Source: Solirubrobacteraceae bacterium (GTDB lineage: Bacteria; Actinomycetota; Thermoleophilia; Solirubrobacterales; Solirubrobacteraceae). From it: a stretch of DNA of 64,000 bases. The position numbers were made by a program, and so were the translations under genes. Below are positions 39,658-61,844 of the stretch, piece by piece. The first letter of the stretch is position 1; each line of letters opens with the position of its first letter. The stretch spans positions 4,052-68,051 of the forward strand of contig JBEKNK010000001.1 in NCBI GenBank assembly GCA_049522915.1, read 5' to 3'. Under the pieces are notes generated by a model. It saw only the letters and a program-made list of their open reading frames with translations. It ran no database searches and had not been told where the DNA came from.

Positions 39658-39661
39658 CTAT

Positions 39662-41647: not shown

Positions 41648-41662
41648 GACGCGCCGGGCCGC

Positions 41663-42436
41663 TCAGCAGCGAACGGCCGAGATGTTCCAGTCGCGCAGGG
41701 CGACGCTGCGGTAGGTCACCGCGGGATCGGCCGTCGTGCTCAGCGACGCGTCGATCGCGGGCCTACCCGAGGCGACGGCGATGACGGTGCTCCAGCCGGC
41801 GCCGGGAGCGAGCGTGATCGGACCGAACCGGCGCGCCGGCCTTCCCGCCACGAGCACCGAAACCTCATAGCTGGTGACGTGCAGCTGCTCGTTGATCACC
41901 CCCACGCAGGCCGCGCTGCGACCGTTCGGGGCCGGCACCAACCACAGCGCGCTCGTCTCCTGGGTGCCCGTCGGCGCCCGCAGCGGCGTGAAGCCGAGCA
42001 CCGCGGCGCCGGCCAGCAACGCGACGGCGACGGCCGCCGCGGCGCCATCTGCGCGACGGATGCGCAGGCGTGGCATCGCGATCGGACGAGCCAGTCCCCT
42101 GGCGCTCCCCCACGCAGCGCCGGCCAGCGTCAGTACGGCGAGCAAGCCCATCCACGGCGCGGTCGTGAGCGAGATGCCGAGCAGATCGAGTAGCAGCCCT
42201 GCGAGGATCGTTGCCGCGATGCTGAAGGCAACCGACAGCGTGGCGATCTCCGCCCCGCGCAGATCATGCGAGCGGAACAGCGCGCTGGCGAGCACGTAGC
42301 CGGGCAGCGCGAGCACGAGCGGCAGGCAGAGCAGCGTTCGCAGCAGGGCCAGGCTCGATGGGAGCACCGCCGCGAAGACGAGCGCCGCGAGCGCGAGCGC
42401 CATCGCGAGTGCCAGATCGGTCCGAGGTCTCACCAC
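41663..42436 (-). CDS. DUF1616-like membrane protein
   Basis: N-terminal TM helices with LPGYVLASALF...ATLSVAFSIA...GLLLDLLGISL pattern, plus a C-terminal beta-rich exported domain. Overlaps the upstream gene stop (GTGGTGA). Confidence 0.55.
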   Translation of the reverse strand: MVRPRTDLALAMALALAALVFAAVLPSSLALLRTLLCLPLVLALPGYVLASALFRSHDLRGAEIATLSVAFSIAATILAGLLLDLLGISLTTAPWMGLLAVLTLAGAAWGSARGLARPIAMPRLRIRRADGAAAAVAVALLAGAAVLGFTPLRAPTGTQETSALWLVPAPNGRSAACVGVINEQLHVTSYEVSVLVAGRPARRFGPITLAPGAGWSTVIAVASGRPAIDASLSTTADPAVTYRSVALRDWNISAVRC

Positions 42437-44262
42437 AGCCCGCGCACTCCGTAGATCACGAGGTTGCCGCCGTCGTACAGGCGGTTGGAGCCGGCGACGT
42501 TGAACTTCGAGTCCGTCGAGGCGGGCGCGAGCGACGGCGGCCCGACGTCGAAGTAGAAGCCGAACAGGTTGTCGCTGCTGATGTTCCGCCTGTCGCTGAC
42601 CACCAGCGTCGTGTGGTAGGAGCGCAGCAGCCTGCGCATCGCCGGTGTCAGCGTCCTTGCGTCGAGCAGATCATCGACGTCGGGGGCGAAGTTGCCCGTC
42701 AGCGAGGCCTGCAGCGCGAGCGTGAGGAAGAAGCGAGCGTCGGCGTCCTGCGCGAACACGTCCTGGGAGCGACCCAGCGTGCGGCCGCTCCACTGCGCCG
42801 CAACGACCGCCGGCGCGTCCAGGGTGCGACCGTCGACCGCGATCCGTTGGGGCTGGGCCAGGCGCTCGTTGGCGGGCCATCCGGCGATCACGCCGGAGCC
42901 GAACACGATCGCCACCGCAGCGCCGACGAGCAACCGCCCCCGCAGTGGACGCCGCTTGCCGCGCTCCAACATCCAGACCAGGCCCAGCGCCACCGTCAGG
43001 CCGACGCCGACGAAGAGAAAGTCGCCGGCCCGGCTGACCGTCTCCCACGCGTCTGGCACGAAGCGCAGCGGCAGCGTGCCGAGGTAGACGAACGCGCACA
43101 GCACGAGCAGCACCATCAGCGGGTTGCGCCAGCGTTGCTGCCACACCAGACGGACCCCCACGAGCACCCCGAGCCCGAGCAGGACGATCCCGCTCAGCGC
43201 GATGACGATCTCGGCCGGCGGCGTCACCTCGCCCCCGCCCTGGTTCGCGAACAGCGTGCGCGTCGGGGTCTCGCGGGCGAGGGTCTGGATCACCTGCTTC
43301 ACCGCGCTGGTGAGCACGGGACTGAGGTAACCGACGGTCCCCCCGGCAGCGATCGCCAGCCAGATGATCGTGAACAAGGCTGCGGCCCCCGCCAGCAGCC
43401 ACGGCGCTCCGGTGCGGCCGTGCAGACGCCAGTGAATCAGGCACACGCCGACCAGGAAGGCGACGAGCACGTAGGCCGAGACGTGGTGGGTGACGACGAC
43501 CGCGGCGGCAACGACCGCGAAGGCGACCTCCCACGGCCGTCGAAACTCGGGCCGGCGCTCCTGAGCCCAGCGGATCGTCACCAGCAGCGCCACGGTCGCC
43601 AGCGGCAGCGCGAGTGACTCGTATGCGAATTGGGCGGACCAGAAGAGGAAGTTCGGTGTGGCCGCATAGATCAGCGCACCGAGTCCCGCCGCGCGCTCCG
43701 AGCCACCGAGGCGCGCGTAGAGTAGGTAGAGCGCGAGCATCATCACCAGCCGACCGGCGGCGACGGTCGTCAGGCCCGCGGCGAACGGCGACATCCCGGC
43801 TGCCCGAGCGATCAACGCCGCGACCAGCTCGAGGCCGGGGTAGCGGGGGGTGATCGGGAGGATCGGGTTGGAGCCGAACAGCCGCCCTGTGGAGAGGATC
43901 GTCTGGAGGTTGTAGAGGTGAGGGAACTCGTCGCCGTAGGTGAAGGCGAACGGGTCGCGCAGCACCTTGACGGCATAGAGCGCCATACCCACGAGCACGA
44001 CTGTGGCCAGACGCTCCCCGGGCCGCACGCGAGCGCCGGCGAGGCGCACACCCGCCGGGAAGATGATCAGGATCATCGCCAGCCAGAACAGCAGCGAGGC
44101 GCCCCGATGTCCGGTCCGCGAGAGCGCATCGGCGCCGCTGACCACCATCACGCCGGCGGCCACCGAGAGGAAGATCCACGGCAGGCGGCCGAGCGGCGAG
44201 GACTGCTTCGCGGGTTCAGCCGGCGCGGCCGGCTGCGCGGGTGTGGCGACGAGGAGGGTCAT
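42430..44262 (-). CDS. large polytopic membrane protein (GT-C / polymerase-like) with C-terminal exported domain
   Basis: 610 aa from ATG 44262. About 13 TM helices followed by a ~200-aa soluble C-terminal domain. No family firmly recognised. Confidence 0.5.
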   Translation of the reverse strand: MTLLVATPAQPAAPAEPAKQSSPLGRLPWIFLSVAAGVMVVSGADALSRTGHRGASLLFWLAMILIIFPAGVRLAGARVRPGERLATVVLVGMALYAVKVLRDPFAFTYGDEFPHLYNLQTILSTGRLFGSNPILPITPRYPGLELVAALIARAAGMSPFAAGLTTVAAGRLVMMLALYLLYARLGGSERAAGLGALIYAATPNFLFWSAQFAYESLALPLATVALLVTIRWAQERRPEFRRPWEVAFAVVAAAVVVTHHVSAYVLVAFLVGVCLIHWRLHGRTGAPWLLAGAAALFTIIWLAIAAGGTVGYLSPVLTSAVKQVIQTLARETPTRTLFANQGGGEVTPPAEIVIALSGIVLLGLGVLVGVRLVWQQRWRNPLMVLLVLCAFVYLGTLPLRFVPDAWETVSRAGDFLFVGVGLTVALGLVWMLERGKRRPLRGRLLVGAAVAIVFGSGVIAGWPANERLAQPQRIAVDGRTLDAPAVVAAQWSGRTLGRSQDVFAQDADARFFLTLALQASLTGNFAPDVDDLLDARTLTPAMRRLLRSYHTTLVVSDRRNISSDNLFGFYFDVGPPSLAPASTDSKFNVAGSNRLYDGGNLVIYGVRGLW

Positions 44263-44272
44263 GGACGGCGCC

Positions 44273-45502
44273 TCAACGCCCGGCGAGGCTAGCTCTCCGG
44301 CTCGCGAGGGCTCGCTCGTAGGCAGCTTCGTAGCGGGGGACGACCGCCGGCGCGCTGAAGGCCTCGACGCGCGACCGCGCACCCGCGCCGAGGCGCTCAC
44401 GAAGCGCCGGATCGCCGATCAGCCGATCGAGGGCGCCGGCCAGCTCACCAGCGTCACCCGGCGTGACGAGGAGTCCGCTCTCCCCGTCGATGACGGCCTC
44501 GGGCAGCCCGCCGATCCGCGAGACCACGACCGCCGTGCCTGCGGCCATCGCCTCGAGCGCCACGGTCGGGAACGGGTCGGGCCAGATCGACGGGACGACA
44601 CCGATCGCGCAGCGCCGCCAGGCGGCGAGCAGGGCGTCGTGGGGCAGCAGCCCGAGATTGATCACGTTGTCGCGCATCGGCAGCAGGTGCGGCTCGACCG
44701 GCCGGCCCGCCACGACAAGCGGTGCCGCGGTGCTCATTCGAGCGTGGGCGTCGAGCAGTACCCCGACTCCCTTATCGGTGGTGATGTCGCCGGCAAAAAG
44801 AATGAAAGGTTCATTGGGAAGCCAGCTCGCAAGCGCTGGATCGAACCCGGCCGTGGCGGCGTCCGAGGCCCTGAAGTTCGGCACCACCTCGTAGGGCAGA
44901 CGGCTCCCGGTGAGGCCGCAGCGCCGCGCGACGTCGTTGCTGACCGGCAGCAACAGGTCGGCCGCGCGCCGCTGCGCGGCGCCCGAGAGCATCGTCAGGA
45001 AGGCCACGGGCGGCCCGACGGCGCGGCCATAGTGCTCGCCAGCGCAGACCGCGCACTTCGCCAGGGCCGGACCGCTGCACGGGGCGCCCCTGCGCATCAG
45101 GCGCTTGGTCGCGCAGCGCAGGCTGTAGTCGTGCAGGCTCAGCACGTACGCGGCGGAAGAGCGCCGGCGCAACGGCAGGTATGCGTGCGCCAGCCAGTTG
45201 TGCGCGTGGAGGACATCCGGGCGTTCGCGGGCGATCACGCGCCGCAGCGCCAGCACCGTCTCGGGGTCCGGTGCCGGCGGCGCGTGACGTCGCCCCGGCT
45301 CGCTGAACAGGCTTCCGACGCGCTGCGCGAGCCCCGGCAGGCGGTGCACGCGAATCCCGTCGATCTCCTCGAGCGCCGCGAGACCGGGCTGGCGCAACGT
45401 CGCCACCGCGACCTCGTGGCCCCGCTGCGCGAGGGCAGCCGAGAGCGACTGCGTCATGCGCTCCTCGCCGCCGACGATCGGCGCGTAGAACTGGGCGAGC
45501 AT
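44273..45502 (-). CDS. glycosyltransferase family 4 (GT-B) with Cys-rich insert
   Basis: MLAQFYAPIVGGEE N-terminus and the E-x7-E region (PDPFPTVALEAMAAGTAVV). Insert C-x11-C-x7-C-x2-C. Confidence 0.85.
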   Translation of the reverse strand: MLAQFYAPIVGGEERMTQSLSAALAQRGHEVAVATLRQPGLAALEEIDGIRVHRLPGLAQRVGSLFSEPGRRHAPPAPDPETVLALRRVIARERPDVLHAHNWLAHAYLPLRRRSSAAYVLSLHDYSLRCATKRLMRRGAPCSGPALAKCAVCAGEHYGRAVGPPVAFLTMLSGAAQRRAADLLLPVSNDVARRCGLTGSRLPYEVVPNFRASDAATAGFDPALASWLPNEPFILFAGDITTDKGVGVLLDAHARMSTAAPLVVAGRPVEPHLLPMRDNVINLGLLPHDALLAAWRRCAIGVVPSIWPDPFPTVALEAMAAGTAVVVSRIGGLPEAVIDGESGLLVTPGDAGELAGALDRLIGDPALRERLGAGARSRVEAFSAPAVVPRYEAAYERALASRRASLAGR

Positions 45503-45510
45503 CAGGATTC

Positions 45511-46671
45511 TCAACGCCGCCCACCTGCCGCGCGACGGTAGCGCTCGAGCAGCGCCGCCGCACACTCGTCCCATGTCGGCAGCGAGAACGGCGCCCGCAC
45601 CAACGGGTCGCGCAGCTCGCGCAGGATCGCCTCGGCGACCGCCTGAGCGGGCATGTCCGCCTCGATCGCGCGCGCCAAACCGCGCTGCGCGAGCTCGCCG
45701 AGACCCGAGCCGGAAGCCACCAGGAGTGGGCGCCCCAGCGAGATCGCCTCGAGCGCCGCGATCGGGTGCGTCTCGTAGTCGCTGAGCAGGGCCACGAGAT
45801 CCACCTCCGAGAGCCGGCGCGCCATCTCGGCGCGGTCATCGGCGGAGACGGCGCTGATCTCGACCGCGGCGGCGATCCCGAGATCCGCGGCCAGACGCCG
45901 TAGCTCCGCCTCGTACGGGCCCGCCCCGGCCACCCACAGTCGGGCCCCGGGCTCGGCGTCGAGCACGTGCGCGAACGCCGCGATCACGCGGTGGTGGCCC
46001 TTGTATCGCTCCAGCCGCCCGACCGAGGCGATCAGCGGATGCGCGGCCGGCGCGCTGCCATTCAGCGCCTGCGCCGGCGGCGGAAGATCCACGCCATTCG
46101 GGATCAGCGCAAAACGCTGCACCGGGATCCGAAGCTCCGCCGAGTAGGTCTCGATCTCGAACGGGGCGAGCGCGACGAGCGTGGCGGCCCGAGTGAGCAA
46201 TGGGCGCAGCAGCGCCCGCTGGGCGCGGCGAGCCCGGTTGCGCATCGGCTGCGAATGCCCGCCGCCGTGAAAGGTGAGGAGATATGGAATGCGACGCCGT
46301 GCGGCTGCGGCCATCGCGATCGGCGCCACGAACGTGTGGTAGGACTGCACGTGGACGACGTCCCATCCGCCCTCGGCGATCACCGTCGCGATCCCCGGCG
46401 CGAACATCCAGTCGCGTCCACGCGGGTGGGCGGCGACACGTCGGATCTCCACGTCGCCGTCCGCATCGGCGCTCGCTCCGCTGCCGTCGCTGACGGTCGT
46501 GAGCACGGTCACGGACGCCTCGCCGCTGCGCGCCAATCGCGTCGCCACTTCATGAACGTGGCGCTCCACCCCACCGATCTCCGGCAGATACCGCGGGGTC
46601 ACCATCAGCACGTTCAGCCGATGGTCCTGCGGGCGCCGGAGCGCGCCGCCCTCCCCTGGCACCTCGGTCAT
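45511..46671 (-). CDS. glycosyltransferase family 4 (GT-B)
   Basis: VLMVTPRYLPEIGGVERHV N-terminus and ETHPIAALEAISLGRPLL C-terminal motif. ATG overlaps the upstream stop (ATGA). Confidence 0.85.
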   Translation of the reverse strand: MTEVPGEGGALRRPQDHRLNVLMVTPRYLPEIGGVERHVHEVATRLARSGEASVTVLTTVSDGSGASADADGDVEIRRVAAHPRGRDWMFAPGIATVIAEGGWDVVHVQSYHTFVAPIAMAAAARRRIPYLLTFHGGGHSQPMRNRARRAQRALLRPLLTRAATLVALAPFEIETYSAELRIPVQRFALIPNGVDLPPPAQALNGSAPAAHPLIASVGRLERYKGHHRVIAAFAHVLDAEPGARLWVAGAGPYEAELRRLAADLGIAAAVEISAVSADDRAEMARRLSEVDLVALLSDYETHPIAALEAISLGRPLLVASGSGLGELAQRGLARAIEADMPAQAVAEAILRELRDPLVRAPFSLPTWDECAAALLERYRRAAGGRR

Positions 46672-47735
46672 GGTGCCAGCCGCTCGGAGGCCAGTGGCGC
46701 GCGCTGGGGTGAGCGATCCTCATCCGGGGGTGAGCCCGGCGCGAGCGGCTTCGTTGCGGCGCCCTCGCCGGCGGCGCCCTCGCGCCGCGCGGTGAAGCAG
46801 CGGCTGCGAGCGTAGGCGGCCGTCGTGATCCCCAGTCCCGCCGTGATCGCCGACGCACGCGCCACGCCATCGCCGCGTCCGCTCGCGGCGAGTCGCAGCT
46901 CACGGCGCAACGCGCGAGGCAGCACGGAGCGCACGTATGCGCGTTCTGAGCGCAGGCCCTCGTCGCCACCGGCGATGCCCGAGAGAACCGCCTTCGCGGT
47001 GCCCTCGACGACGCAGCGGCGCACGAAGTAACGCCAGGTTCCGCGCTCGGGCGGCACGGCGTGCGCGACGCGCGCCCGGGGCTCGTAGATCCAGTAATGC
47101 CCGGGGTGAGCGCGCGCGGCGCGGATGCACAGCTCGGTCTCCTCGGCGCTTCCCGACAGCGTCCTCGATCCGCCAGCGCGACCGAGCCGCGCGTCGAAGG
47201 CGCCCGCGCGCGCGAGAACCGCGGCCCGCATCGACATGTTCGCGCCGATCACGTTGCGGACACGGGCGGTGCTCGTCGGCATGCCGGCGTAGGTGCAGCC
47301 GACCACCCAGTTGAACTCCGGCGGGAACCACCGCGGCGCGCCCCGCTCCCAGGCCGGCTCGATCGAGCCGCCCACGCCGAGCACCTTCGGGTCGCTGTAG
47401 GCCTCCACCAGCCGCGCCAGCCAGTGCTCCTGCGCGATCGCGTCGTCGTCGAGGAACGCGAGAATCGAGCCCCGCGCCTCCTCGGCGCCGGTCTGGCGGG
47501 CACCCGACAGGCCACGATCGTGGCTGTTACGGACGATCTGCGCACCGCTCAGCCGGGCTCGCACGTGCTCCTCGAGCGCCTCGTCCCCATCGATCACGAC
47601 GATCGCCTCAAGCGGCGGCGGCGTTTGCGCGAGGACCGACGCCACCGCAGCGCGGAGGTTCGCGAGGCGCTCGAGCGTGTGGGTGCAGACGATCACCGAG
47701 ATCGTCTCCGGCTGGAGGCTCGTCGCGGACATCAT
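46668..47735 (-). CDS. glycosyltransferase family 2 (GT-A)
   Basis: ISVIVCTHT...VIDG...LSGARQTG...AFLDDDA (DxD). ATG-ATG start at 47735. Confidence 0.85.
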   Translation of the reverse strand: MMSATSLQPETISVIVCTHTLERLANLRAAVASVLAQTPPPLEAIVVIDGDEALEEHVRARLSGAQIVRNSHDRGLSGARQTGAEEARGSILAFLDDDAIAQEHWLARLVEAYSDPKVLGVGGSIEPAWERGAPRWFPPEFNWVVGCTYAGMPTSTARVRNVIGANMSMRAAVLARAGAFDARLGRAGGSRTLSGSAEETELCIRAARAHPGHYWIYEPRARVAHAVPPERGTWRYFVRRCVVEGTAKAVLSGIAGGDEGLRSERAYVRSVLPRALRRELRLAASGRGDGVARASAITAGLGITTAAYARSRCFTARREGAAGEGAATKPLAPGSPPDEDRSPQRAPLASERLAP

Positions 47736-47785
47736 CGACACAGTAGCCGTTGCACTTGGCGGCGCCCGACGTCCGCCGGCGAGCC

Positions 47786-49636
47786 TCAGCCGGGGCCCGA
47801 TCGCCGGCCTTCCCTGCCCAGGGTGCGTGCGAGCGCGGCGTCCAGGGCCTCGTGGATGTACACCTGCGACCAGGCTGAGCGGAACACGTGCTCCGCCGTC
47901 GGGATCCGCTCGAGGTGCAGGTTCGGCCACTCATCGAGCCGTTCCAGCAGGCCGTATGCGACGAAGTCGTCGTAGAGCGGCTCGCCGAGCGAGAGCAGCA
48001 GGAGGGACTCAACGTCACCCTCACGCAGCCGATCCAGGGCTTCGACGATGTCCGCGTCTGAGGTCGTGGTCGGGCTGCCGCCGCGTCCGAAGCGCATGCG
48101 CCGCGCGGTCACGCGCACCATCCTGGCGAGCCGCCAGCGATCGGCGGCAACGATCCGCGCGATCGTGCCCAGATCGCGCTCGCGCAGCAGCGCCCGTGTG
48201 CGCCGGGCGTCTCGCATCGCGCCGAAATCGTCGCTCCAGTAGAAGGCCAGAAGGTTCACGAGCAACAGGCCGCGCACGCGCTCGTCAGCCAGCGCCGCGT
48301 GCAGGCCCCAATAACCGCCCGAGCACAGGCCGCCGACGATGAACCGGCCGGGAAGGCCGCGGCGCTCGAGCTCATCGCAGGCGGCGATCACCTGCTTTGC
48401 GAGCTCGTGGCGCTGGAAGGACGTGCGCGCGGCGTAGAGGTCCTCTGCGCCGTCGGAGTCGCCGACCCCGAGCACGTCGAGCCGCAGTGTCGAGACCCCG
48501 CGCGCGGCCCAGCGGCGGGCCACCTCCACCCACATTCGGTGGTGGCCGATGCGCCGCACGGCGCCGGGGTTCAGCAGGATCGCGCAGAGCGCGACCTCGA
48601 CGGAGGAAGCGACCGGTTCGGTCAGCACGCCGCTGAGCAGCTCGCCGGCGAACTCGAACTCAAACGGCGTCTCGCGGATCGCGACCTCGGCGACCGTCAG
48701 CTCGAGCTCGGCCGCGCGCGCGGGCGCCGCCGCAAACGGCGGAAACGCGTCCGCCCCGGCGACTGCGTCGGCGAGCCAGCGAGTCGTGTACGCGAATGTC
48801 TCCCACGGCGTCTTCGAGAACTGGGGGTCGACCATCATCGCGCCGTAGCCGGCGCCGTCGGCGACCGTGACCTCGGCTCCGCTGCGTTCGTAGTGCTCGC
48901 GCAGCCGCTGGTCGACCTCGCTGGAGTCGCGCCGCAGGAAGAGAATTCGCCGCCGGTCGGCGTTGGGGACCGGCAGCTCGGTCAGCTTCAACGCCTCGAT
49001 CGCCGCCACGGTCTCGGCCGTCATCAGGAAGCCCGACGCGTTCACGGCGCCCTCGCCCAGCACCTCGCTGTCCGCGGGCGCCGGTGGTGTCTCCTTCACA
49101 GCACCGATGTGCACCGCCTCGGCGTCGAGAATCCGCGCGAAGGCCTGGAGCTCGCGCATGAAGACGTGGCCGCGCGAGTACACGCCCCAGAGCACGAGAT
49201 CGTCAATCGGCGCTCCAAGCGCAAGCGCGCGGGCTGCGACGATGCCGCCGAGCCCGATCCCGATCGCGACGATCCGCTCGCATCCCTGGTTCGCCCTCAG
49301 GGACGCTGCGACGCCTTCGAGCGCCGCGGTCCAGGCTTCGAGGCGCTCGGGATCCCGCGGCGACCCGGCGCTGTCGCCACAACCGGGCAGGTCAAACCGC
49401 AGCGTCGGATGGCCGGCCTCCGCGAGCGCGCCTGCCCAGGAGCGGAGACTGCGGTGTGAGCTCAGTTCGTCCCAGCCGAACGGGGAGCACAGAATCACGC
49501 CGGTGGCAGATCGCTCGCGCTCGCGCGGGATGTGCGCCATGACGAAGACCGGATCCGGCTCGGTTGCGAGGTAGAACGGGCGCCCGCGCGCGGCGAGCGG
49601 CCGATCGGCGAGCAGATCTGGAACGAGTTCGGTCAT
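47786..49636 (-). CDS. fused tandem alpha/beta-hydrolase-fold protein (hydrolase-2-like + hydrolase-1-like halves)
   Basis: 616 aa with two alpha/beta-fold halves. The nucleophile elbows read GIGLGG (Gly) and GLCSGG (Cys). Each half has an LRFD/LRLD...GxGDSxG segment. Confidence 0.65.
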   Translation of the reverse strand: MTELVPDLLADRPLAARGRPFYLATEPDPVFVMAHIPRERERSATGVILCSPFGWDELSSHRSLRSWAGALAEAGHPTLRFDLPGCGDSAGSPRDPERLEAWTAALEGVAASLRANQGCERIVAIGIGLGGIVAARALALGAPIDDLVLWGVYSRGHVFMRELQAFARILDAEAVHIGAVKETPPAPADSEVLGEGAVNASGFLMTAETVAAIEALKLTELPVPNADRRRILFLRRDSSEVDQRLREHYERSGAEVTVADGAGYGAMMVDPQFSKTPWETFAYTTRWLADAVAGADAFPPFAAAPARAAELELTVAEVAIRETPFEFEFAGELLSGVLTEPVASSVEVALCAILLNPGAVRRIGHHRMWVEVARRWAARGVSTLRLDVLGVGDSDGAEDLYAARTSFQRHELAKQVIAACDELERRGLPGRFIVGGLCSGGYWGLHAALADERVRGLLLVNLLAFYWSDDFGAMRDARRTRALLRERDLGTIARIVAADRWRLARMVRVTARRMRFGRGGSPTTTSDADIVEALDRLREGDVESLLLLSLGEPLYDDFVAYGLLERLDEWPNLHLERIPTAEHVFRSAWSQVYIHEALDAALARTLGREGRRSGPG

Positions 49637-52215: not shown

Positions 52216-52241
52216 GCGTAGGAGCTGGGCGCGGTCCGCGT

Positions 52242-53219
52242 CTATCCGACGACCTCCTCGAGCCCCGCGATCGCCTGCTTCCACGCGTCGCCGAGCGGCG
52301 CGACGATCGGCTCGGGGTCGAACGCGCGCCGGCGCGCCAGGCGGAAGCCGAGCACCTTGCAGCCCTCGACGATCGCGCGCATCGGCGCGGTACACGCCCG
52401 CGCGTCGGCGCCGAGCAGCCACTCCGCCTGCGTCGCGGCGAGCTCGAACGCGGCGCCCACCATGCGGACGGTCGCAAAGGCGTAGGCGTGGTAGGCCTCC
52501 GGCCCGGCCTCCAGCAGCATCGGGAGGTCGCGATCGAGCGCCTGCGCGAAGCGCTCGAAGGGATCGCTCGCCGGCCGATGGGCGAGGTGCCGCCGCAACG
52601 AGGCGAGAGCGCCGGCGCGCAGCTCCCGGCCGGCGAGCCGCGGTCCGGCGTCAAAGCGCACCAGCTCGGTGTAGGGCGGCAGGATCTCCGGCGAGGGTTC
52701 GCCGTCCAGGCGGAAGATGCCGGTGTAGTCCTCACCTTCGAGCTCGTAGAGGCCGGCGCCGTGGAAGTAGCGCAGCCACCCGCGCTCCAGGTCGATCGCC
52801 TCGGCGACGACCGAGCTCTTGACGTGCTCGGTGTGGTAGCTGGTCGCCGCCGTGTCCGGAAGGTGCCAGGAGTCGAGCTCGACGATCAGCGTGCGGCCGC
52901 TGTCAATCTGCTCCGCGATCTGCAGCGGCAGCGGGCGGTAGGGCTGCATCTCGTGGACGTCGATGCCGAACAGCGACTCGAGATCCTCCGGCGGCGGCTT
53001 GAAGAAGGTCCACTGATCGCCCTCGAAGTCCGTCCGCACCAGGCAGCCGAGCACCGCCAGCGGCTCATCGCCGCGACCGTGCAGAAGTTCGATGATGATG
53101 TCGGTGTAGCAGTTGGTCTCCATGTAGGTTCGTCCGCTGCCGTGCACAGCGTGCGAGCGGTAGCCGTCCGCGTCGAGGCCGAACAGGCTGCGGTAGGTGC
53201 CGGTACGCGTAGCGCTCAC
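52242..53219 (-). CDS. DUF1839-like protein (possible BtrH-like Cys-dependent acyl/aminoacyl transferase)
   Basis: 325 aa. N-terminal YMETNCYTDIIIELLHGRG. GTG start overlaps the ligase stop (GTGA 53216-53219). Family name is from memory only. Confidence 0.5.
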   Translation of the reverse strand: MSATRTGTYRSLFGLDADGYRSHAVHGSGRTYMETNCYTDIIIELLHGRGDEPLAVLGCLVRTDFEGDQWTFFKPPPEDLESLFGIDVHEMQPYRPLPLQIAEQIDSGRTLIVELDSWHLPDTAATSYHTEHVKSSVVAEAIDLERGWLRYFHGAGLYELEGEDYTGIFRLDGEPSPEILPPYTELVRFDAGPRLAGRELRAGALASLRRHLAHRPASDPFERFAQALDRDLPMLLEAGPEAYHAYAFATVRMVGAAFELAATQAEWLLGADARACTAPMRAIVEGCKVLGFRLARRRAFDPEPIVAPLGDAWKQAIAGLEEVVG

Positions 53220-54145
53220 ACCCACAGCTCCCGCCGGACATCCGCCGGCCAGGACGCCGGATCGACGCCGTGGGCGTGCAGGAGCGCCAGCACGATCCGC
53301 TCCTGGCCGAAGCCGAGGCACGCCGTGTGGGCGCCACCGCCGTCAGCGAGCTTCAGGTCGTAGATGCCCGCAAAGTGATCCTGGTGGTAGTTGAACGACG
53401 CCACTGCGGTTGGCTCGTCGCCGGCGATCGCCACCAGCAGCTCGAGCTTCAGCTCCTGGGCTCGCTGGTTGGCGGCCAGCATCCGGCCGCCGCGCCCGAA
53501 GAACGGATCGGTGGCACGATCGGGGCGGGCGTCCAGGCCGAGCGAGCGCAGCAGGCCGAGCCCGCGCTCGCACCAACCGTCGCGCCAGGCGCGGACCTCG
53601 TCCGGCGCGCCGAGCCGCACGATCTCGCGCTGATGGAACATCTGCAGGCGAGCCGGATCCTCCGACGGTTCGTGGCGGAACACCCACGCACCGCCTGCAT
53701 CCACGACGACGCCGCCGCTGGGCAGCGGGCCACGCGCGGCGACGGCCGGGTAGACCGGGTAGCAGGCCGCCGGCACCAGCGCGAGCTCGGTCATGGACTG
53801 GAACTGGCTCCAATCCTCGTGCCGGTCCGCACGCTCGCCCTGGACCAGCGCCTCCTCCTCCCCGCCCTCGAAGGCGAAGACCGATCCCGCCAGGTGCGGG
53901 AATGAGTGCAGGTAGCCGATCGTCTCGATCTGGCGTCGCGGGAGCAGCGGGGGGAAGCGCATCGACTCGGGGGCGTCAACCGCAGCGGCCCTCGTGATCA
54001 GCGCGTCGACGCGTGCGCGGACGTCCTCGAACACGGCGCCCTTGCCGTAGAGCCCGGGGACGCCACTGGAGATGAACAGCCCGTGCGCGATCAGCTCGTC
54101 GCGGAACGCCGCCTGATCCGCGGTGGCCTGACGAACCCTCGCCAT
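53216..54145 (-). CDS. amino acid--[carrier protein] ligase (class II aaRS catalytic-core homologue, SerRS-like, no tRNA-binding domain)
   Basis: 309 aa only. Class II motifs: RFPPLLPRRQIETIGYLHSFPHL, VFRHEPS...LQMFHQREIV, HTACLGFGQERIVLALL. Candidate Zn ligands are Cys (PAACYP), Glu (HQREIV) and Cys (HTACLG). Confidence 0.75.
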   Translation of the reverse strand: MARVRQATADQAAFRDELIAHGLFISSGVPGLYGKGAVFEDVRARVDALITRAAAVDAPESMRFPPLLPRRQIETIGYLHSFPHLAGSVFAFEGGEEEALVQGERADRHEDWSQFQSMTELALVPAACYPVYPAVAARGPLPSGGVVVDAGGAWVFRHEPSEDPARLQMFHQREIVRLGAPDEVRAWRDGWCERGLGLLRSLGLDARPDRATDPFFGRGGRMLAANQRAQELKLELLVAIAGDEPTAVASFNYHQDHFAGIYDLKLADGGGAHTACLGFGQERIVLALLHAHGVDPASWPADVRRELWV

Positions 54146-55344
54146 CAGGGCTCCTTGGCGATCAGCAGCAGCGCCGCGTCGGTGGCGTGCAGGCGCTCGT
54201 TCGCGACCATCAGGCGAGCGGACAGCGAGTCACGCAGGTGACGGCCGATGCTGTAGGGCGTGTCGTTTCGGTAGCCGACGATGCCAACCACCTCGAGCGC
54301 GCCGGCGCAGACGCTCGGCGCGTGCTCGGAGGCTGCGAGTTTCAGGTTGTTGAAGCGCAGCACGCTCGCCATCGTCATCAGGCGAGCGCGATCATCGAGA
54401 TCATCGGCCTGGAAGTCGTGCAGCGCCGCAGACACCTCGCCGCGCAGCAATGTGAGCTCCGCCATCACGTGCGAGAGCCTTGCCGCGGCAGGCAGCGGCT
54501 CGCCCGGCGCGCGGCGGGCGCTGGCTCGCAGGAAAGCGCGCGCACGCTCGAACGCGTCGCTCGCGATGCCGAGCCAGACATGCGACCAGAGGATGTGCGA
54601 GAGCGGCACCATCGACTGGTTCATGACCACGGCGAAGGGCGCCGTCATCACCTGCTCCGGGGCGAAGCGGGCGCGCACGACAAACCCGGGTGAGCATGTC
54701 CCTCGCATGCCCAGCGTGTCCCACGCGCCGGCGGGCTCGAGCTCGGCCTGGCCGAACTTGGTCAGCACGAGCACCTGGTCGCCGGGCTCGGCCTCGGGCG
54801 TGCGGCGCAGCGTCGTCAACAGGTCGTCGGCGTGAGCGCCGTAGCTGACGGTCGGAGCCTGCTTCTCGAAGCTCATCTCGCCGTCCGCTTCCGGCGTGAC
54901 CGCGGCGATCGAGCGGCTCATGTCGCCGCCGGTGCCGATCTCCGACGTCGCCGAGGCGATCAGCCGCTGATCGCGATGGAGGTCCTGCAGATAGCCCTCG
55001 AACCACGGCGCGCCGTCGAGGTGGCGCGCGATCGTCAGCACCTGGATCTGGTGCATCGCAAAGACCATCGCAGTTGCGCTGCAGCGGCGCCCGAGCTCGA
55101 AGCAGCAGCGTGCGATCGTCTCAAGCGACGCGCCGTCGCCGCCGAGCGACTCCGGCACCGCGGCGGACAGGGCGCCGGCGGCCCGCAGCGCGTCGATCGC
55201 CTCGGTGGGAAAGCGCGCCTCGCGGTCGACGCTGTCAGCCGCCGCGGCCGCGACATCCTCGGCGATCCGCCGGACGGCCTCAAGCAGCGCCCGCTCGGAG
55301 TCCACGGGGACGCTCATCGAGCGGCGCCGCAGCTCACGCGCCAC
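54145..55344 (-). CDS. acyl-CoA dehydrogenase family protein (probably acting on a carrier-protein-bound substrate)
   Basis: 399 aa with ACAD three-domain pattern (FPTEAIDAL, TSEIGTGGD, WDTLGMRGTCS, GYRNDTPYSIGRHLRD). The start may be GTG 55344 or ATG 55317. Confidence 0.8.
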   Translation of the reverse strand: MARELRRRSMSVPVDSERALLEAVRRIAEDVAAAAADSVDREARFPTEAIDALRAAGALSAAVPESLGGDGASLETIARCCFELGRRCSATAMVFAMHQIQVLTIARHLDGAPWFEGYLQDLHRDQRLIASATSEIGTGGDMSRSIAAVTPEADGEMSFEKQAPTVSYGAHADDLLTTLRRTPEAEPGDQVLVLTKFGQAELEPAGAWDTLGMRGTCSPGFVVRARFAPEQVMTAPFAVVMNQSMVPLSHILWSHVWLGIASDAFERARAFLRASARRAPGEPLPAAARLSHVMAELTLLRGEVSAALHDFQADDLDDRARLMTMASVLRFNNLKLAASEHAPSVCAGALEVVGIVGYRNDTPYSIGRHLRDSLSARLMVANERLHATDAALLLIAKEP

Positions 55345-55615
55345 CGCCCGCCGCCGACGGCTCGCCGTCGGCTGACAGCTCGGCGACCGCCGCAGCGATT
55401 GCCGACACGCTGTCGAACACGCCCCGGGTCAGCATCCGGTCGGGAAACTCGATGTCGAAGGCGTCCTCCAGCGCGAGCATCAGGTTCACGCTCGCGTGCG
55501 ACGTCATGCCCGCGGCGAACAGATCCGTGTCATCGGCGAGCGTGTCCACATCGACGGGCAGGCGGGCGTGCTCGCGCAGCACGCGGCGGATCACGATGCG
55601 AGTGTCGTCGGTCAA
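55334..55615 (-). CDS. dedicated acyl/aminoacyl carrier protein
   Basis: 93 aa. LFAAGMTSHASVNLMLALEDAFDIEF, with Ser in the phosphopantetheine (DSL) position. TTG start overlaps the PPTase stop (TTGA). Confidence 0.7.
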   Translation of the reverse strand: MTDDTRIVIRRVLREHARLPVDVDTLADDTDLFAAGMTSHASVNLMLALEDAFDIEFPDRMLTRGVFDSVSAIAAAVAELSADGEPSAAGGGA

Positions 55616-56049
55616 CGCTCGCCACGCACCCGGGCGACGACGACCGCAGCCGCAAACGGGCCCTCATGGGTGAGGCTGACGTCAAGCCCCTCGACGCCGC
55701 GCATGAGCGCGAGCTCCCGCGCAGCACCCGTGAGCTCGATCGACGGTCGTCCGAAGCGGTCGGCGCGAACACCGACCGCCTGCCAGGGAACGGCCTCGTC
55801 GCCGGCGCGCAGCACCTTCAGCGCTGCCTCCTTGGCGGCGAAGCGGGCGGCGAGCCGTCGGGCGTCGGGCGCTCCGCCCGCGCTGGCGCAGTCGCGCAGC
55901 TCGCGGCTCGTGTACACCCGCCTAAGATAGCGCCCGGCGTGGACGCGGATTGAGTCCTCCACGGCGGCGACGGACATCAGGTCGATGCCGACCACCACGC
56001 CGTCGCGACGCGACGTGGCAGCGCTCCTCGCCCTGCCCCGGCGGATCAC
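55612..56049 (-). CDS. 4'-phosphopantetheinyl transferase, AcpS type
   Basis: VGIDLMSV and FAAKEAALK motifs. 145 aa. GTG start overlaps the methyltransferase stop (GTGA). Confidence 0.8.
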   Translation of the reverse strand: MIRRGRARSAATSRRDGVVVGIDLMSVAAVEDSIRVHAGRYLRRVYTSRELRDCASAGGAPDARRLAARFAAKEAALKVLRAGDEAVPWQAVGVRADRFGRPSIELTGAARELALMRGVEGLDVSLTHEGPFAAAVVVARVRGER

Positions 56050-56978
56050 GCGCCGGCTCCCGGGAGTTCCACGCGCGTCGCGGCGTAGTGCAGCTCGTGC
56101 CAGCCGCTCGCGCTCTCGCCCGGGCCAACGGGCTCACCATCGAGCCTGAGGCATTCGTGCAGCTCGAAGCCGTGCGCGGCGAGCTGGCGTTGCTGCTCGT
56201 CGCGCGTGATGTAGTAGTGCAGCAGCGAGAAGTCGTGCGCCGCGTCGTTGAGGATCGCGTGGTCCGAGCCAACCTGCTCCCATGCCCGCAGCCGCCGGCG
56301 GTTGCGAATGCTTCGCGGGAGTCTCAGCACCTGGCTCGCGAAGCTCACAGGGTTGGTCGCGTTGATGCTGCGAAGGGGTCCCCGCAGCAGCGGTGCGCAG
56401 GCCAGGTTGTGCGAGGAGAAGATCAGCAGGCCGGACGGCCGCAGCAGCCGGTGGAGCCCGTCGAGAAAGGCCCGGCGCTCATCGTGCGTGAGCACGTCGA
56501 TCACGGCATACCCGGCCACGATCGCATCCCAGCCCCCCGTTTCGAAGTCCGAGAGCTCGCGCAGGTCGCCCTGGCGGAAGGCGGCCTGCGGGTAGGTTCG
56601 CCGGCAGTACGCGATCATGTCGGCGGCGAGATCGACGCCGGTGACCGAGGTCGCCTTCTCGATCAGGTGGGCGGTCAGGCGCCCGCCGCCGCAGCCGAGT
56701 TCGAGCACGGTCCCCGAGAGGGCGTCGACGTGGGTGTCAAACAGCACGCGCTCGGCCGGCCGCAGCCGGCGCCCGCCGTAGCGGCGCAGCAGACCCCCGG
56801 ACCCCCAGACGCGCTGGTTGGCCTCGCGTTGCGCCTGCTCGGGCGTGAACGTGGCCTCCCCCTCCGGTGCGCCGGCGCCGGGCGGAGCGCCGTTCATCCG
56901 AGCGGTTGCTGAAGGTGCGTTGTGCATGACGGAGTCCTGGCGCGAAGCCCGAGCGTGCGCGAAGGCGCCGCTGTCCAC
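56046..56978 (-). CDS. class I SAM-dependent methyltransferase
   Basis: VLELGCGGGRL (motif I), DAIVAGYAV, LRPSGLLIFSSHN. The start may be GTG 56978 or ATG 56927. Confidence 0.8.
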   Translation of the reverse strand: MDSGAFAHARASRQDSVMHNAPSATARMNGAPPGAGAPEGEATFTPEQAQREANQRVWGSGGLLRRYGGRRLRPAERVLFDTHVDALSGTVLELGCGGGRLTAHLIEKATSVTGVDLAADMIAYCRRTYPQAAFRQGDLRELSDFETGGWDAIVAGYAVIDVLTHDERRAFLDGLHRLLRPSGLLIFSSHNLACAPLLRGPLRSINATNPVSFASQVLRLPRSIRNRRRLRAWEQVGSDHAILNDAAHDFSLLHYYITRDEQQRQLAAHGFELHECLRLDGEPVGPGESASGWHELHYAATRVELPGAGA

Positions 56979-57896
56979 TCAGCCGGCGGGCGAGAGGTCC
57001 GCGCGGGGCGGATGAAGCAGCGAGAGGTGGGCGCGGTCGTCGCCGTCGCGCACGCCTCCCGCGATCGAGTGCTCATGGGCGTCGGCGACAGGCGGCAGCT
57101 CGTGAAACGCCGGCCGCCATCCATGTTCATGCTGGGCGGCGGGGTCGCGTCGAACACGTTCTCGCAGGATCATACGCAGGATCCGCAGTCCGTCCCGCAC
57201 GGCGCTGAGCTTGCTCTCGCCGTGCAGGCGCTCGTATTCGACCGACGCGATCTCGACGACCTCCAGGCCCGCCCGCGCGACGCGCACGTGGATCAGGGTC
57301 TCCACCTCGAAGCCGTCACAGGTGACGTGCATGTGCGGCAGGCAGTGGTTCCAGAAGGCGTTGTAGCCGTAGCAGAGGTCCGTGTAGCGCGTTCCGAAGA
57401 GCACGTTCACGGCGAGCCCGAGCATGCGGTTGCCGAACGCCCTGATCGGCGTGATGTCGGTGCTGGCGCCACCGAGCGCGAAGCGCGACCCCTTGGCGAA
57501 GTCGTTGCCCGCGAGCAGCGCAGCGACGAACTGCGGGATCTCGGCCGGGTCATTGGAGGCGTCGGCGTCGAGCATCACGATGATGTCACCGGTCGCGGCC
57601 GCGAAGCCGCAGGCCAGCGCGTTGCCCTTGCCGCGGCCGTTCTGCAGGACGACGCGGACGTCGGGGCGGATCGTGCGGGCAACATCGATCGTGCCGTCCT
57701 TGGAGTGCCCGTCGACGAGCACGACCTCGTCCACGATCTCCGGGATGCGGGCGAGCACATGCGGCAGGTTCGCGGCCTCGTCGAGCGTGGGGATGACGAC
57801 GCTGATCGTCGCCGACGAGCGCCCCGCCGTGGCACGGGCGACCCGTCCCTCCACGGAGAAAAGTGCCGTCCCTGCCGTCGAATCCCTGACGCTCAT
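56979..57896 (-). CDS. glycosyltransferase family 2 (polyprenyl-phosphate sugar synthase-like); first gene of the operon
   Basis: ISVVIPTLDEAANL, VLVDGHSKDGT, MLDADASN (DxD). ATG 57896 preceded by GGAGG. Confidence 0.85.
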   Translation of the reverse strand: MSVRDSTAGTALFSVEGRVARATAGRSSATISVVIPTLDEAANLPHVLARIPEIVDEVVLVDGHSKDGTIDVARTIRPDVRVVLQNGRGKGNALACGFAAATGDIIVMLDADASNDPAEIPQFVAALLAGNDFAKGSRFALGGASTDITPIRAFGNRMLGLAVNVLFGTRYTDLCYGYNAFWNHCLPHMHVTCDGFEVETLIHVRVARAGLEVVEIASVEYERLHGESKLSAVRDGLRILRMILRERVRRDPAAQHEHGWRPAFHELPPVADAHEHSIAGGVRDGDDRAHLSLLHPPRADLSPAG

Positions 57897-61823: not shown

Positions 61824-61844
61824 GGGAGGCGCGGCGGCGAGGAC

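Follow-up and report, generated by a model that had tools for sequence, protein, structure and literature searches.

Why does a gene set for loading an amino acid onto a carrier protein lie in the middle of what looks like a surface-glycan operon? This question was raised by a block of 14 genes, numbered here g1 to g14 in the direction of transcription, on the minus strand of a 64,000-nt stretch of DNA (the window) from a Solirubrobacteraceae bacterium (GenBank assembly GCA_049522915.1, contig JBEKNK010000001.1, positions 4,052 to 68,051). Analysis of the block showed that it is a composite of two separately conserved modules: a cassette for loading an amino acid onto a carrier protein (the aa:CP cassette), g2 to g9, and a glycan module consisting of g1, g10 to g14, and a gene for a Wzx-like flippase. 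The genes of the block, the families to which their products belong, the catalytic residues that are conserved, and the patterns of synteny are direct observations. An earlier account of the same DNA (the preliminary description) had read the operon as a non-canonical surface-glycan pathway. A surface-glycan set with Wzx and a GT-C membrane glycosyltransferase was indeed found, but the genes for the glycoside hydrolase family 2 (GH2) protein, the double hydrolase, the methyltransferase, and the DUF1839 protein belong to the separate aa:CP cassette.

The distribution of the cassette across genomes showed that g2 to g9 is one conserved unit that usually stands alone. A scan of one genome per GTDB species with a 14-sequence alignment of aa:CP ligases found at least 595 stretches encoding relatives, from which 80 loci were retrieved; 18 window proteins were searched against all retrieved loci, and the counts below are for the 60 genome loci with enough flanking sequence. 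Next to the ligase, these loci encoded the acyl carrier protein (ACP; 59 loci), the flavoprotein with the acyl coenzyme A dehydrogenase (ACAD) fold (56), the GH2 protein (55), the DUF1839 protein (54), the fused double hydrolase (51), a 4'-phosphopantetheinyl transferase (PPTase; 41), and the methyltransferase (20). The exact order ACP-ACAD-ligase-DUF1839-GH2-hydrolase was present in 40 of the 60, and the loci span Solirubrobacterales, Acidobacteriota, Alpha- and Betaproteobacteria, Myxococcota, and Chloroflexota. A good example of this is plasmid p2 of Azospirillum brasilense Sp7, on which (at 227277 to 234943) the RefSeq annotation shows the same six genes as a self-contained set; a Rhizobium leguminosarum plasmid carries five of the six, with no annotated hydrolase. 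The flanks of stand-alone cassettes were unrelated genes, for instance, those for regulators, SUF, and HpaB in two Solirubrobacterales loci and one for an autotransporter elsewhere. No homolog of the GT-C, DUF1616, or Wzx proteins was detected inside the retrieved flanks of any of the 60 loci, and GT2 or GT4 matches were found in a few; one of the 60 (L006) is the same contig as the linked locus L001 described below, and its GT-C gene starts just past the flank. The GH2 and double-hydrolase genes accompany the aa:CP ligase in many phyla, mostly away from any glycosyltransferase gene, and therefore belong to the carrier-protein cassette. Their interpretation as ordinary glycan trimmers of the glycosyltransferase set was rejected because they co-occur with the cassette in glycan-less loci and lack signal peptides. 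An AglP-like role of the methyltransferase as a glycan methylase was rejected as well, given that its gene co-occurs with the aa:CP cassette in loci without glycan genes.

The other half of the operon also occurs by itself. When contigs encoding homologs of the GT-C protein g13 were looked up, a glycan module with no cassette was found in Baekduia-like genomes (L088, L090, and L093), with GT-C proteins 43 to 46% identical to g13. In L090 the order is g10-like GT2, g11-like GT4, g12-like GT4, GT-C, DUF1616, convergent Wzx, and g1-like GT2; L088 and L093 have the same families in a rearranged order, the g10-like match being weak in L093. By comparison, all six architectures examined in which the GT-C protein is at least 50% identical to g13 (the window, L001, L002/L003, L089, L091, and L092) have the cassette directly upstream of GT4-GT4-GT-C-DUF1616. 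These architectures differ considerably in detail. L001 has no methyltransferase gene, and a reversed GH16-like gene replaces g10. L002/L003 is without the ACAD, DUF1839, GH2, methyltransferase, and g10 genes but keeps the PPTase, ACP, ligase, and hydrolase genes inside the glycosyltransferase operon. L089 and L091 have a reversed GH16/KRE6-like gene, to which L091 adds a Wzx-like gene, and L092 has a 4-nt overlap between the hydrolase gene and that for GT4. The ligases of L001, L002/L003, and L092, the three architectures whose retrieved DNA includes the ligase gene, are 73 to 84% identical to that of the window, compared to 71% or less for stand-alone ligases. In addition, a short ACP-ligase-hydrolase cassette has a GT4 gene and two GH16 genes as neighbors in L012; the neighbors of another, in L048, are a Wzx-like gene and two GT2 genes, one g1-like and the other g10-like.

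The linkage of cassette and glycan module is confined to one Solirubrobacteraceae clade. Because it is stable through rearrangement and partial loss, it argues for functional coupling; because most cassettes stand alone, the rival explanation of two independent modules stays alive. Synteny, which the preliminary description had named as one way to expose a merely coincidental adjacency, thus gave a mixed answer, with the linkage kept through six architectures in one clade but no part of the GT-C, DUF1616, and Wzx set in the retrieved flanks of the 60 cassette loci.

Some genomes have more than one aa:CP cassette. L079 has two ligase copies within 15 kb, and the metagenome-assembled genome (MAG) MFD09603.bin.2.58 carries cassettes of both lengths, short in L047 and long in L054. 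The ligases of several MAGs labeled "uncultured Chloroflexia" (L007, L009, L013, L015, and L044) are 60 to 68% identical to the Solirubrobacteraceae ligase, within the 56 to 84% of MAGs labeled Solirubrobacterales. This could mean mislabeled bins or recent transfer.

The operon itself is a tightly packed, co-directional unit. GC3 frame analysis resolved 14 consecutive minus-strand open reading frames (ORFs) between 41663 and 58049, the operon spanning 41663 to 57953, and Pfam and NCBIfam searches reproduced for all 14 proteins the gene order given in the preliminary description. The window is about 71% G+C, and the closest protein matches come from Solirubrobacteraceae MAGs (Thermoleophilia, Actinomycetota). 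Six junctions are unambiguous short overlaps (g3/g4, TTGA; g5/g6, 1 nt; g6/g7, GTGA; g8/g9, ATGA; g10/g11, ATGA; g13/g14, GTGA), and g12 and g13 are separated by 10 nt. The spacing at the others depends on the start codon chosen: 0, 51, or 81 nt at g1/g2, −4 or 47 nt at g2/g3, −11 or 16 nt at g4/g5, −43 or 26 nt at g7/g8, 44 or −145 nt at g9/g10, and −4 or 8 nt at g11/g12. The largest intergenic gap is therefore no more than 81 nt. The JGI gene calls on identical metagenome contigs (L004 and L005) take the longer gaps (81, 47, 16, and 26 nt). Hence, the earlier statement that most junctions are 4-nt overlaps or gaps of 50 nt or less agrees with the six overlaps of 1 to 4 nt but was slightly optimistic for g1/g2.

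The absence of internal hairpin terminators, also noted earlier, was upheld. A consensus-based terminator scan of the operon gave 3 weak sites compared to 4.1 expected from shuffled sequences, no intergenic gap was unusually strong in folding (RNAfold, relative to 1083 60-nt windows across the operon), and its 16 kb contain a single T5 run. Rfam models detected no RNA element within the operon or upstream of it. The strongest local RNA fold in the operon lies inside the GH2 coding sequence of g8 (51579 to 51668, minus strand) at −46.5 kcal/mol per 60 nt (mean, −23.0; standard deviation, 5.2). The packing, including 4-nt overlaps, recurs in relatives. Together, the lack of terminator-like signals and the same packing in relatives make a single transcript plausible. 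Recent horizontal insertion, judged by composition, was rejected, as GC content is flat at 0.70 to 0.74 across the block.

Within the cassette, the ligase gene g6 (53216 to 54145) encodes a truncated homolog of methanogen-type seryl-tRNA synthetase (SerRS). The 309-aa protein scored 398 bits against the aa:CP ligase family NF005479 (cutoff, 357) and matched the PDB structure of Bll0957 (4h2w/3mey) end to end (276 bits; E value, 4e-81; residues 8 to 305; ~50% identity). It matches methanogen-type SerRS over the C-terminal core only, the tRNA-binding domain being absent. In an alignment of 47 diverse homologs, taken from a representative search of 1.8 billion proteins, five residues (C128, R157, E159, C276, and R283) never vary and E174 hardly does; by the numbering of Bll0957, C128, E174, and C276 would correspond to the zinc ligands. 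The g6 protein thus has the arginines of motifs 2 and 3 and the Cys/Glu/Cys residues of Bll0957, Bll6282, and Atu2573. These three are the aa:CP ligases reportedly described by Mocibob et al. in 2010 and 2013, carrier loading being said to have been shown biochemically for Bll0957. One difference is that the second zinc Cys begins a C-V-A sequence in Bll0957 and a C-L-G sequence in g6, so that the amino-acid specificity of g6 may differ. Another is that g6 sits inside a glycan operon. The attempt to read specificity from the pocket residue, aligned with Ala281 of Bll0957, was abandoned because this residue did not track the presence of the ACAD or DUF1839 genes and C-L-G dominates all cassette types.

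The cognate carrier gene, g4 (55334 to 55615), lies two genes upstream of g6, with the ACAD-like gene between them. Its product scored 110 bits against NF005480 (cutoff, 72), the family of carrier-protein partners of aa:CP ligases; the second-best NCBIfam match was DltC (25 bits), and Ser39 is kept in at least 95% of 79 orthologs. The g3 product (55612 to 56049) is an AcpS-type PPTase (Pfam ACPS, 54 bits), which matched the NCBIfam model pantethn_trn (TIGR00556) at 59 bits (cutoff, 45) and the holo-ACP synthase models more weakly, below their cutoffs. The g5 product (54145 to 55344; alternative start ATG, 55317) is an ACAD-fold flavoprotein by its Acyl-CoA_dh_N and Acyl-CoA_dh_1 domains (Pfam), with equally weak best PDB matches to the nitrososynthase DnmZ (1e-14), short-chain acyl coenzyme A dehydrogenase (SCAD; 2e-14), and DszC (8e-12). 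No Glu was found where the region of the catalytic base of SCAD (E368) or of the medium-chain enzyme (MCAD; E376) aligns, although a base may lie elsewhere. R368 and V371 lie there, at positions that are variable or hydrophobic and never Glu in 72 orthologs. The g2 gene (56046 to 56978; start candidates GTG 56978, ATG 56927, and ATG 56897) encodes a class I S-adenosylmethionine (SAM) methyltransferase (Pfam Methyltransf_25/11/12), an accessory of the cassette whose homologs adjoin it in 20 of the 60 loci, preceding the PPTase gene in some and following the hydrolase gene in others.

Two of the cassette proteins have conserved cysteines that would suit an acyl transferase. The g7 product (52242 to 53219; Pfam DUF1839, 325 bits) belongs to a family that has been classed as papain-like, with a C-(T/S)-H triad and a glycan- and acyl-related context, and the same study grouped BtrH, an ACP:aminoglycoside acyltransferase, with papain-like enzymes (PMC10318531). 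N36-C37, T123, H132, H153, and H244 of g7 are kept in at least 95% of 73 orthologs and fit such a triad, which makes g7 a candidate acyl- or thioester-transferase. In butirosin biosynthesis (BtrH/BtrI), a papain-superfamily enzyme moves an aminoacyl group from a carrier to a sugar, and DUF1839 and BtrH_N are both papain-like (PMC10318531); in contrast, g7 has no BtrH_N Pfam match, its family has the C-(T/S)-H triad, and no aminoglycoside genes are present. The g9 product (47786 to 49636) is a fusion of two alpha/beta-hydrolase domains, which matched TIGR03101 (hydr2_PEP; residues 19 to 259; 90 bits; cutoff, 203) and then TIGR03100 (hydr1_PEP; residues 322 to 597; 79 bits; cutoff, 168), both below cutoff. 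Its N-terminal domain is without a nucleophile, the elbow reading GIG128LGG with Gly in 43 of 54 orthologs. The C-terminal elbow is G-L-C438-S/A-G, with Cys438 invariant (54 of 54), H583 kept in 94%, and E552 kept in 89%. Since a Cys nucleophile suits transthioesterification from the phosphopantetheine arm of a carrier, the C-terminal domain can be read as an acyl-transfer enzyme. Polyhydroxyalkanoate synthases have the same Cys-nucleophile arrangement.

The largest cassette protein, g8 (49633 to 52284; alternative start GTG, 52215), is a GH2 protein resembling beta-mannosidases (PDB 6byc, E value of 4e-48; 2je8, 6e-44). E462 (CGSSE) and E543 (RFAAE) are kept in at least 95% of 63 orthologs and align with the acid/base and nucleophile of BtMan2A. 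The acid/base is preceded by Ser-Ser in g8, compared to Asn-Asn in BtMan2A. No signal peptide was detected in any cassette protein, g8 and g9 included, which places g8 in the cytoplasm by prediction; two short hydrophobic stretches set g9 apart from the other cassette proteins.

How does the cassette compare with known carrier-dependent systems? It shares with Dlt (teichoic acid D-alanylation) and with AlmEFG (glycylation of Vibrio cholerae lipid A) the logic of ligase, carrier, transferase, and envelope glycoconjugate. In both systems, a small amino acid is loaded by an ATP-dependent ligase on a small carrier of its own, and a transferase uses it to esterify a glycopolymer or glycolipid of the envelope. 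However, those ligases are of the ANL family, whereas g6 is a homolog of class II aminoacyl-tRNA synthetases (aaRS) and no AMP-binding domain was found in the 14 proteins; nor did Pfam and NCBIfam reveal an MBOAT (DltB), DltD, or LpxL-type (AlmG) match in the block. The cassette therefore falls outside the Dlt/Alm group. Here the candidate transferases are instead a papain-fold protein and an alpha/beta-hydrolase domain with a Cys nucleophile, which are predicted to act in the cytoplasm. The halves of g9 also match, in the same order, the hydr2_PEP and hydr1_PEP proteins of exosortase A (PEP-CTERM/EpsH1) exopolysaccharide loci. In those loci the TIGR03100/TIGR03101 pair stands beside an ACP, an AMP-forming ligase, and a pyridoxal phosphate (PLP)-dependent decarboxylase, and we know of no characterized function for the pair. 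As in the window, a system for loading a carrier protein and two alpha/beta-hydrolase domains thus share one polysaccharide locus. In the window the scores are below cutoff, the hydrolases are fused, and the loading enzyme is an aa:CP ligase.

Turning to the glycan module, g1 (56979 to 57896; alternative start GTG, 57953) encodes a soluble GT2 (Pfam Glycos_transf_2, 85 bits) resembling polyprenyl-phosphate hexosyltransferases of the dolichol phosphate mannose (DPM) synthase, ArnC, or AglJ type. NCBIfam scores were 136 bits for AglJ (cutoff, 325), 76 bits for dolichol phosphate hexose transferase, and 55 bits for ArnC; the best PDB match was the DPM synthase of Pyrococcus furiosus (5mlz; E value, 4e-16), followed by ArnC (9hwj; 8e-11). 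Orthologs with 55 to 62% identity occur in the stand-alone modules L088, L090, and L093. These likenesses fit either priming on polyprenyl monophosphate (the AglJ/AglG route) or the supply of a polyprenyl-phosphate hexose to a GT-C enzyme (as in ArnC/ArnT or Ppm1/Pmt). The second GT2, g10 (46668 to 47741; long alternative start GTG, 47930), is AglG-like (NF041394, 212 bits; cutoff, 440; E value, 1e-62) and a variable member of the module, with orthologs at 47 to 49% identity in the stand-alone modules L088 and L090 and none in L001, L002, or L092. The GT4 genes g11 (45511 to 46671; Pfam Glyco_transf_4 and Glycos_transf_1) and g12 (44273 to 45514; assigned by Pfam) both gave weak NCBIfam matches to the PEP-CTERM-associated GT4 families stp2 and stp3, and g11 was found at 54 to 69% identity in all related modules.

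The preliminary description had singled out the last two gene products, a 610-aa membrane protein and a DUF1616-like protein, as candidates for polymerization or transfer and had considered a GT-C or O-antigen-ligase-like fold for them. This expectation held for the first only. The 610-aa protein, g13 (42430 to 44262), is a GT-C-fold transferase: it exceeds the cutoff of Pfam PMT_2 (34.8 bits; cutoff, 26.1), and its AlphaFold model (pLDDT, 88; pTM, 0.87) has a GT-C fold with a C-terminal domain predicted to be extracytoplasmic. Foldseek comparison with the PDB placed STT3A, yeast Stt3, and AglB on top (E value of ~2e-8; TMq, 0.58 to 0.60), followed by DPY19, AftA, ALG12, ArnT, and PglB. Among 39 homologs, D111-E112, H115, and H259-H260 are among the invariant residues, and by topology the Asp-Glu pair would lie in a loop early in the protein and outside the cytoplasm; NCBI names one homolog "glycosyltransferase family 39." Neither an STT3 Pfam match nor a WW, WxD, or WWDYG-type motif was found in g13, and PDB sequences gave no significant match to a profile of the GT-C alignment, so that fold comparison alone was informative. 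In several homologs of 918 to 1059 aa, a g12-like GT4 (P0182, P0221, and P0229) or a GT2 (P0234) is naturally fused to the GT-C N terminus; the g12-like fusions tie the GT4 and GT-C steps together. The second protein, g14 (41663 to 42433; Pfam DUF1616, 44.5 bits; cutoff, 31.6), is the constant partner of the GT-C protein, its homolog lying directly after the GT-C gene in L002, L089, L090, L091, L092, and L093 and elsewhere in the module in L088. Its low-confidence model (pLDDT, 67) has five transmembrane helices and a small beta domain and gave no PDB fold match with a Foldseek E value below 1. A Wzy-, ligase-, or Wzz-like role of g14 thus found no support.

The flippase gene (40067 to 41647, plus strand; Pfam Polysacc_synt_3, 45 bits; MOP superfamily) converges on g14, and inspection of positions 41640 to 41670 gave exactly the 15 nt between stop codons that had been reported. 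Wzx orthologs with 45 to 78% identity lie beside the module in L002, L090, L092, and L093. Secreted GH16 paralogs had been placed just outside both ends of the operon, at 37977 to 39221 and 58312 to 59667, and both are there, but the plus strand has three such genes rather than two: GH16a (34886 to 36406; Pfam, 50 bits; EIDVVE), GH16b (37977 to 39221; 63 bits; EIDVME), and GH16c (58312 to 59667; Glyco_hydro_16, 72.6 bits; EIDVAE), the last of these divergent from g1. All three proteins have the EIDVxE catalytic motif and an N-terminal hydrophobic segment, which is signal-peptide-like in GH16b and GH16c. GH16a is 42% identical to GH16b over the catalytic domain, and orthologs of GH16b lie beside the module in L002, L089, L091, and L092. 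L088 and L090 have secreted GH26 genes, one with an fn3 domain, where the clade of the window has GH16. That the hydrolase family changes with the module suggests that the secreted hydrolases act on the module's own product.

Pfam and NCBIfam searches of 31978 to 63577 found no Wzy, Wzz/polysaccharide copolymerase, or initiating phosphoglycosyltransferase, and a Pfam scan of window ORFs found no exosortase domain, PEP-CTERM proteins not having been looked for. The earlier report that Wzy, Wzz, ABC exporter, and exosortase are all missing therefore stands for the block, except that an ABC ATPase gene lies about 4.7 kb upstream of the operon (62639 to 63577). Syntenic relatives pair this gene with one for an ABC-2 permease. 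Close relatives keep it, and the distant stand-alone glycan modules are without it. With a MOP flippase and without Wzy, Wzz, or an initiating phosphotransferase, the glycan half is not a Wzx/Wzy pathway, and its earlier characterization as a non-canonical surface-glycan pathway was confirmed.

One parallel is the Agl system of Haloferax volcanii (AglJ, AglG, AglR, AglB, and AglP). NCBIfam matched g1 best to AglJ and g10 best to AglG, two enzymes that start a glycan on dolichol monophosphate and lengthen it with no phosphoglycosyltransferase involved. The operon also encodes a flippase of the Wzx type, a SAM methyltransferase, and a GT-C protein closest in structure to STT3/AglB; the DUF1616 family of g14 is otherwise archaeal. 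However, the module is no equivalog of the Agl pathway, as g1 and g10 reached only 136 of 325 and 212 of 440 bits, respectively, and the methyltransferase here belongs to the aa:CP cassette and not to the glycan module. The oligosaccharyltransferases STT3, PglB, and AglB share a fold with g13 but not the STT3 Pfam family or WWDYG motif, so the module is not a canonical oligosaccharyltransferase system. Likeness to the ArnC/ArnT, Ppm1/Pmt, and GtrB/GtrC pairs lies in g1 (DPM synthase/ArnC) and in the PMT_2 match of g13 with its invariant Asp-Glu, and the co-encoding of g1 with a PMT_2-type protein is suggestive of polyprenyl-phosphate monosaccharide donors. The locus goes beyond those pairs in its additional cytoplasmic GT2 and GT4 enzymes, its flippase of the Wzx type, and its DUF1616 partner, and GT4-GT-C fusions occur in some homologs.

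What, then, would the two modules do together? We tentatively favor, at a little short of an even chance, a mechanism in which the aa:CP cassette was recruited to decorate a lipid-linked glycan that is made, flipped, and transferred by the Solirubrobacterales-specific GT2/GT4/Wzx/GT-C/DUF1616 module; the identities of the substrates, the order of the steps, and the physical link of the cassette product to the glycan are what we infer here. Synthesis would begin with g1 putting a hexose onto polyprenyl phosphate, after which up to three cytoplasmic transferases (the AglG-like GT2 g10 and the GT4 proteins g11 and g12) would assemble a glycolipid or a short oligosaccharide on the inner side of the membrane. 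All cassette steps (g2 to g9) would be cytoplasmic. The PPTase g3 would convert the dedicated carrier g4 to its holo form, and the zinc-dependent, SerRS-like g6 would, judging from its homolog Bll0957, adenylate a small amino acid and thioester it to the carrier. The tethered aminoacyl group may be oxidized by g5. A transferase with a Cys nucleophile would then accept the acyl group by transthioesterification and, before flipping, hand it on to an amine or hydroxyl group on the glycan intermediate. The candidate for this step is the C-terminal domain of g9, with the DUF1839 protein g7 as a second candidate in the long version of the cassette; the reduced operons keep no transferase candidate other than g9. 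The GH2 protein g8 and the methyltransferase g2 may edit the sugar or the acyl group. The Wzx-like protein would flip the glycan intermediate, and g13, always paired with g14, would carry out the extracytoplasmic transfer, either of the oligosaccharide en bloc to a protein or wall acceptor or by addition of the polyprenyl-phosphate hexose made by g1. Finally, once the product is outside the cell, the secreted GH16 enzymes may trim it or act on it by transglycosylation. The overall outcome would be a surface glycan decorated with an amino acid.

Several observations weigh against this mechanism. The first is that genes for a glycosyltransferase, a GT-C protein, or a flippase are missing from the neighborhood of most cassettes, from which it follows that the cassette can work without this glycan module and that its normal substrate may differ. 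The amino-acid specificity of the ligase is not readable from sequence, Gly standing here at the position of Ala281 of Bll0957. The flavoprotein g5 has no counterpart of the usual ACAD catalytic Glu, and both dehydrogenation and oxygenation of a tethered amino acid are possible. There is no ready explanation for a GH2 enzyme, predicted to be hydrolytically competent, in a biosynthetic, cytoplasmic carrier-protein cassette. The donor of g13 may be an oligosaccharide or a monosaccharide, its sequence pointing to a PMT_2/GT39-like enzyme and its structure being closest to STT3. The gaps of 44 to 81 nt could house internal promoters. Lastly, the host belongs to an uncultured lineage represented by MAGs.

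The first of these points leads to the rival explanation that two functionally independent modules merely adjoin, the cassette making its own product as it does where it stands alone, the glycan remaining undecorated, and co-transcription reflecting insertion into a permissive site. The product could then be a small molecule derived from a glycoside or a modified universal envelope precursor. The autonomy of the cassette in the great majority of loci, amid unrelated regulator, SUF, HpaB, and autotransporter genes, would be expected if this were so, as would the fact that it brings along a PPTase and a sugar-active enzyme (GH2), and the glycan module is complete without a cassette in L088, L090, and L093. 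Chance insertion accounts poorly for a linkage that lasts through six rearranged architectures, with the GT-C protein down to 50% identity and half of the cassette lost, and for the gene overlap at the module boundary in L092. Short cassettes have, moreover, come to lie independently beside other glycosyltransferase, Wzx, and GH16 genes, and the cassette has no exporter of its own. We therefore regard independence of the modules as unlikely.

Even if the modules are coupled, the glycan half may be a lipoglycan or glycolipid pathway of the type that makes mycobacterial phosphatidylinositol mannosides and lipomannan. In that case the GT4 enzymes would glycosylate a membrane lipid at the inner face, Wzx would flip it, the GT-C protein would add single sugars from the polyprenyl-phosphate hexose made by g1 (the logic of Ppm1 and ArnC), and the cassette would aminoacylate the glycolipid in an AlmEFG-like manner. 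The closeness of g1 to DPM synthase and ArnC agrees with this, and so do the PMT_2 match of g13, its homolog named GT39, and its DE motif, which is typical of PMT and ArnT enzymes, users of polyprenyl-phosphate monosaccharides. The lack of both an initiating phosphoglycosyltransferase and Wzy is equally expected, and throughout the order the module stays in synteny with a set of CMAS, DUF1365, and amine-oxidase genes that may serve to modify lipids. On the other hand, the best structural matches of g13 are oligosaccharyltransferases (TMq, 0.58 to 0.60, compared to 0.40 to 0.47 for ArnT), g1 and g10 most resemble the AglJ/AglG pair, in which the oligosaccharide is built directly on dolichol phosphate, and flippases of the Wzx type usually carry oligosaccharide units, all of which leaves the lipoglycan pathway distinctly unlikely. 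More remote still is the idea that the block makes a secondary metabolite, a natural product of amino-acid or peptide type that is glycosylated and secreted, rather than an envelope glycan. A carrier protein, a dedicated PPTase, an adenylating enzyme, an ACAD-fold tailoring enzyme, and a methyltransferase are typical parts of such clusters, and an ACP-ligase pair does lie among genes for thiamine pyrophosphate-dependent and chorismate-utilizing enzymes in Conexibacter (L063). Yet condensation, ketosynthase, and thioesterase-release domains are all absent, GT-C proteins and MOP-family flippases act on lipid-linked sugars rather than soluble aglycones, and secreted GH16 or GH26 genes accompany the module, so we consider this explanation very improbable.

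The genes around the operon offer some further context. Upstream of GH16c, the region from 59725 to 63577 has EamA transporter, GFA-domain, and ABC ATPase genes; in L001 to L004 this run also includes glutathione S-transferase and ABC-2 permease genes, and it is absent beside distant glycan modules. On the other side, beyond Wzx (31978 to 39221, plus strand), genes for an amine-oxidase-like flavoprotein and a CMAS-type methyltransferase (36503 to 37828) are interleaved with the GH16 genes. This set, to which relatives add a DUF1365 gene, recurs in L088, L089, L091, and L092 and is syntenic with the glycan module even in distant, cassette-less loci; it may be lipid-modifying and could point to a glycolipid product. 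Between GH16b and Wzx lies a 138-aa ORF with no Pfam match (39459 to 39875, plus strand), where relatives have an ORF of 66 to 89 aa. A phosphoglucomutase/phosphomannomutase gene (28018 to 29826, plus strand), about 12 kb from the operon, is a possible source of sugar precursors. Farther to the left are housekeeping genes for RelA/SpoT, RecJ, and a fused SecDF (16450 to 24718, minus strand) and a SAM riboswitch (RF00162; 14473 to 14586, minus strand; 87.8 bits; E value, 1.8e-19) directly upstream of a gene for a PALP-family PLP-dependent enzyme (13162 to 14439, minus strand).

To our knowledge, aa:CP ligases have been without an assigned biological role since 2010. A 2022 review describes the role of carrier-protein aminoacylation by these enzymes as unknown (PMC9437257). 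In the literature that our search covered, there was no functional study of DUF6541, Bll0957, Atu2573, or the exosortase-linked hydrolases and none on aa:CP ligases after that review. The enzymes are structurally and biochemically well characterized, and the gap in their role is addressed here by a fixed cassette of six to eight genes with an intact GH2 protein and a Cys-nucleophile hydrolase. Its position inside the flippase/GT-C operon of one clade leads to a testable hypothesis, the amino-acid decoration of an envelope glycan, and the stand-alone cassette on plasmid p2 of A. brasilense Sp7 offers a tractable test system. In a bolder form, which we consider doubtful though possible, aa:CP ligases would be the loading enzymes of a widespread cytoplasmic pathway that puts an amino-acid-derived group on lipid-linked envelope glycans, an aaRS-derived counterpart of Dlt and Alm; in the window the glycan would be assembled on polyprenyl monophosphate, as in Agl, and delivered by an STT3-fold GT-C protein without oligosaccharyltransferase motifs. 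If true, this would be a new kind of bacterial glycoconjugate pathway. The analysis also defines a recurrent Solirubrobacterales glycan module, comprising a DPM-synthase-like GT2, GT4 enzymes, a GT-C protein, DUF1616, Wzx, and secreted GH16 or GH26 enzymes, which bears on the almost unknown cell envelope of Thermoleophilia.

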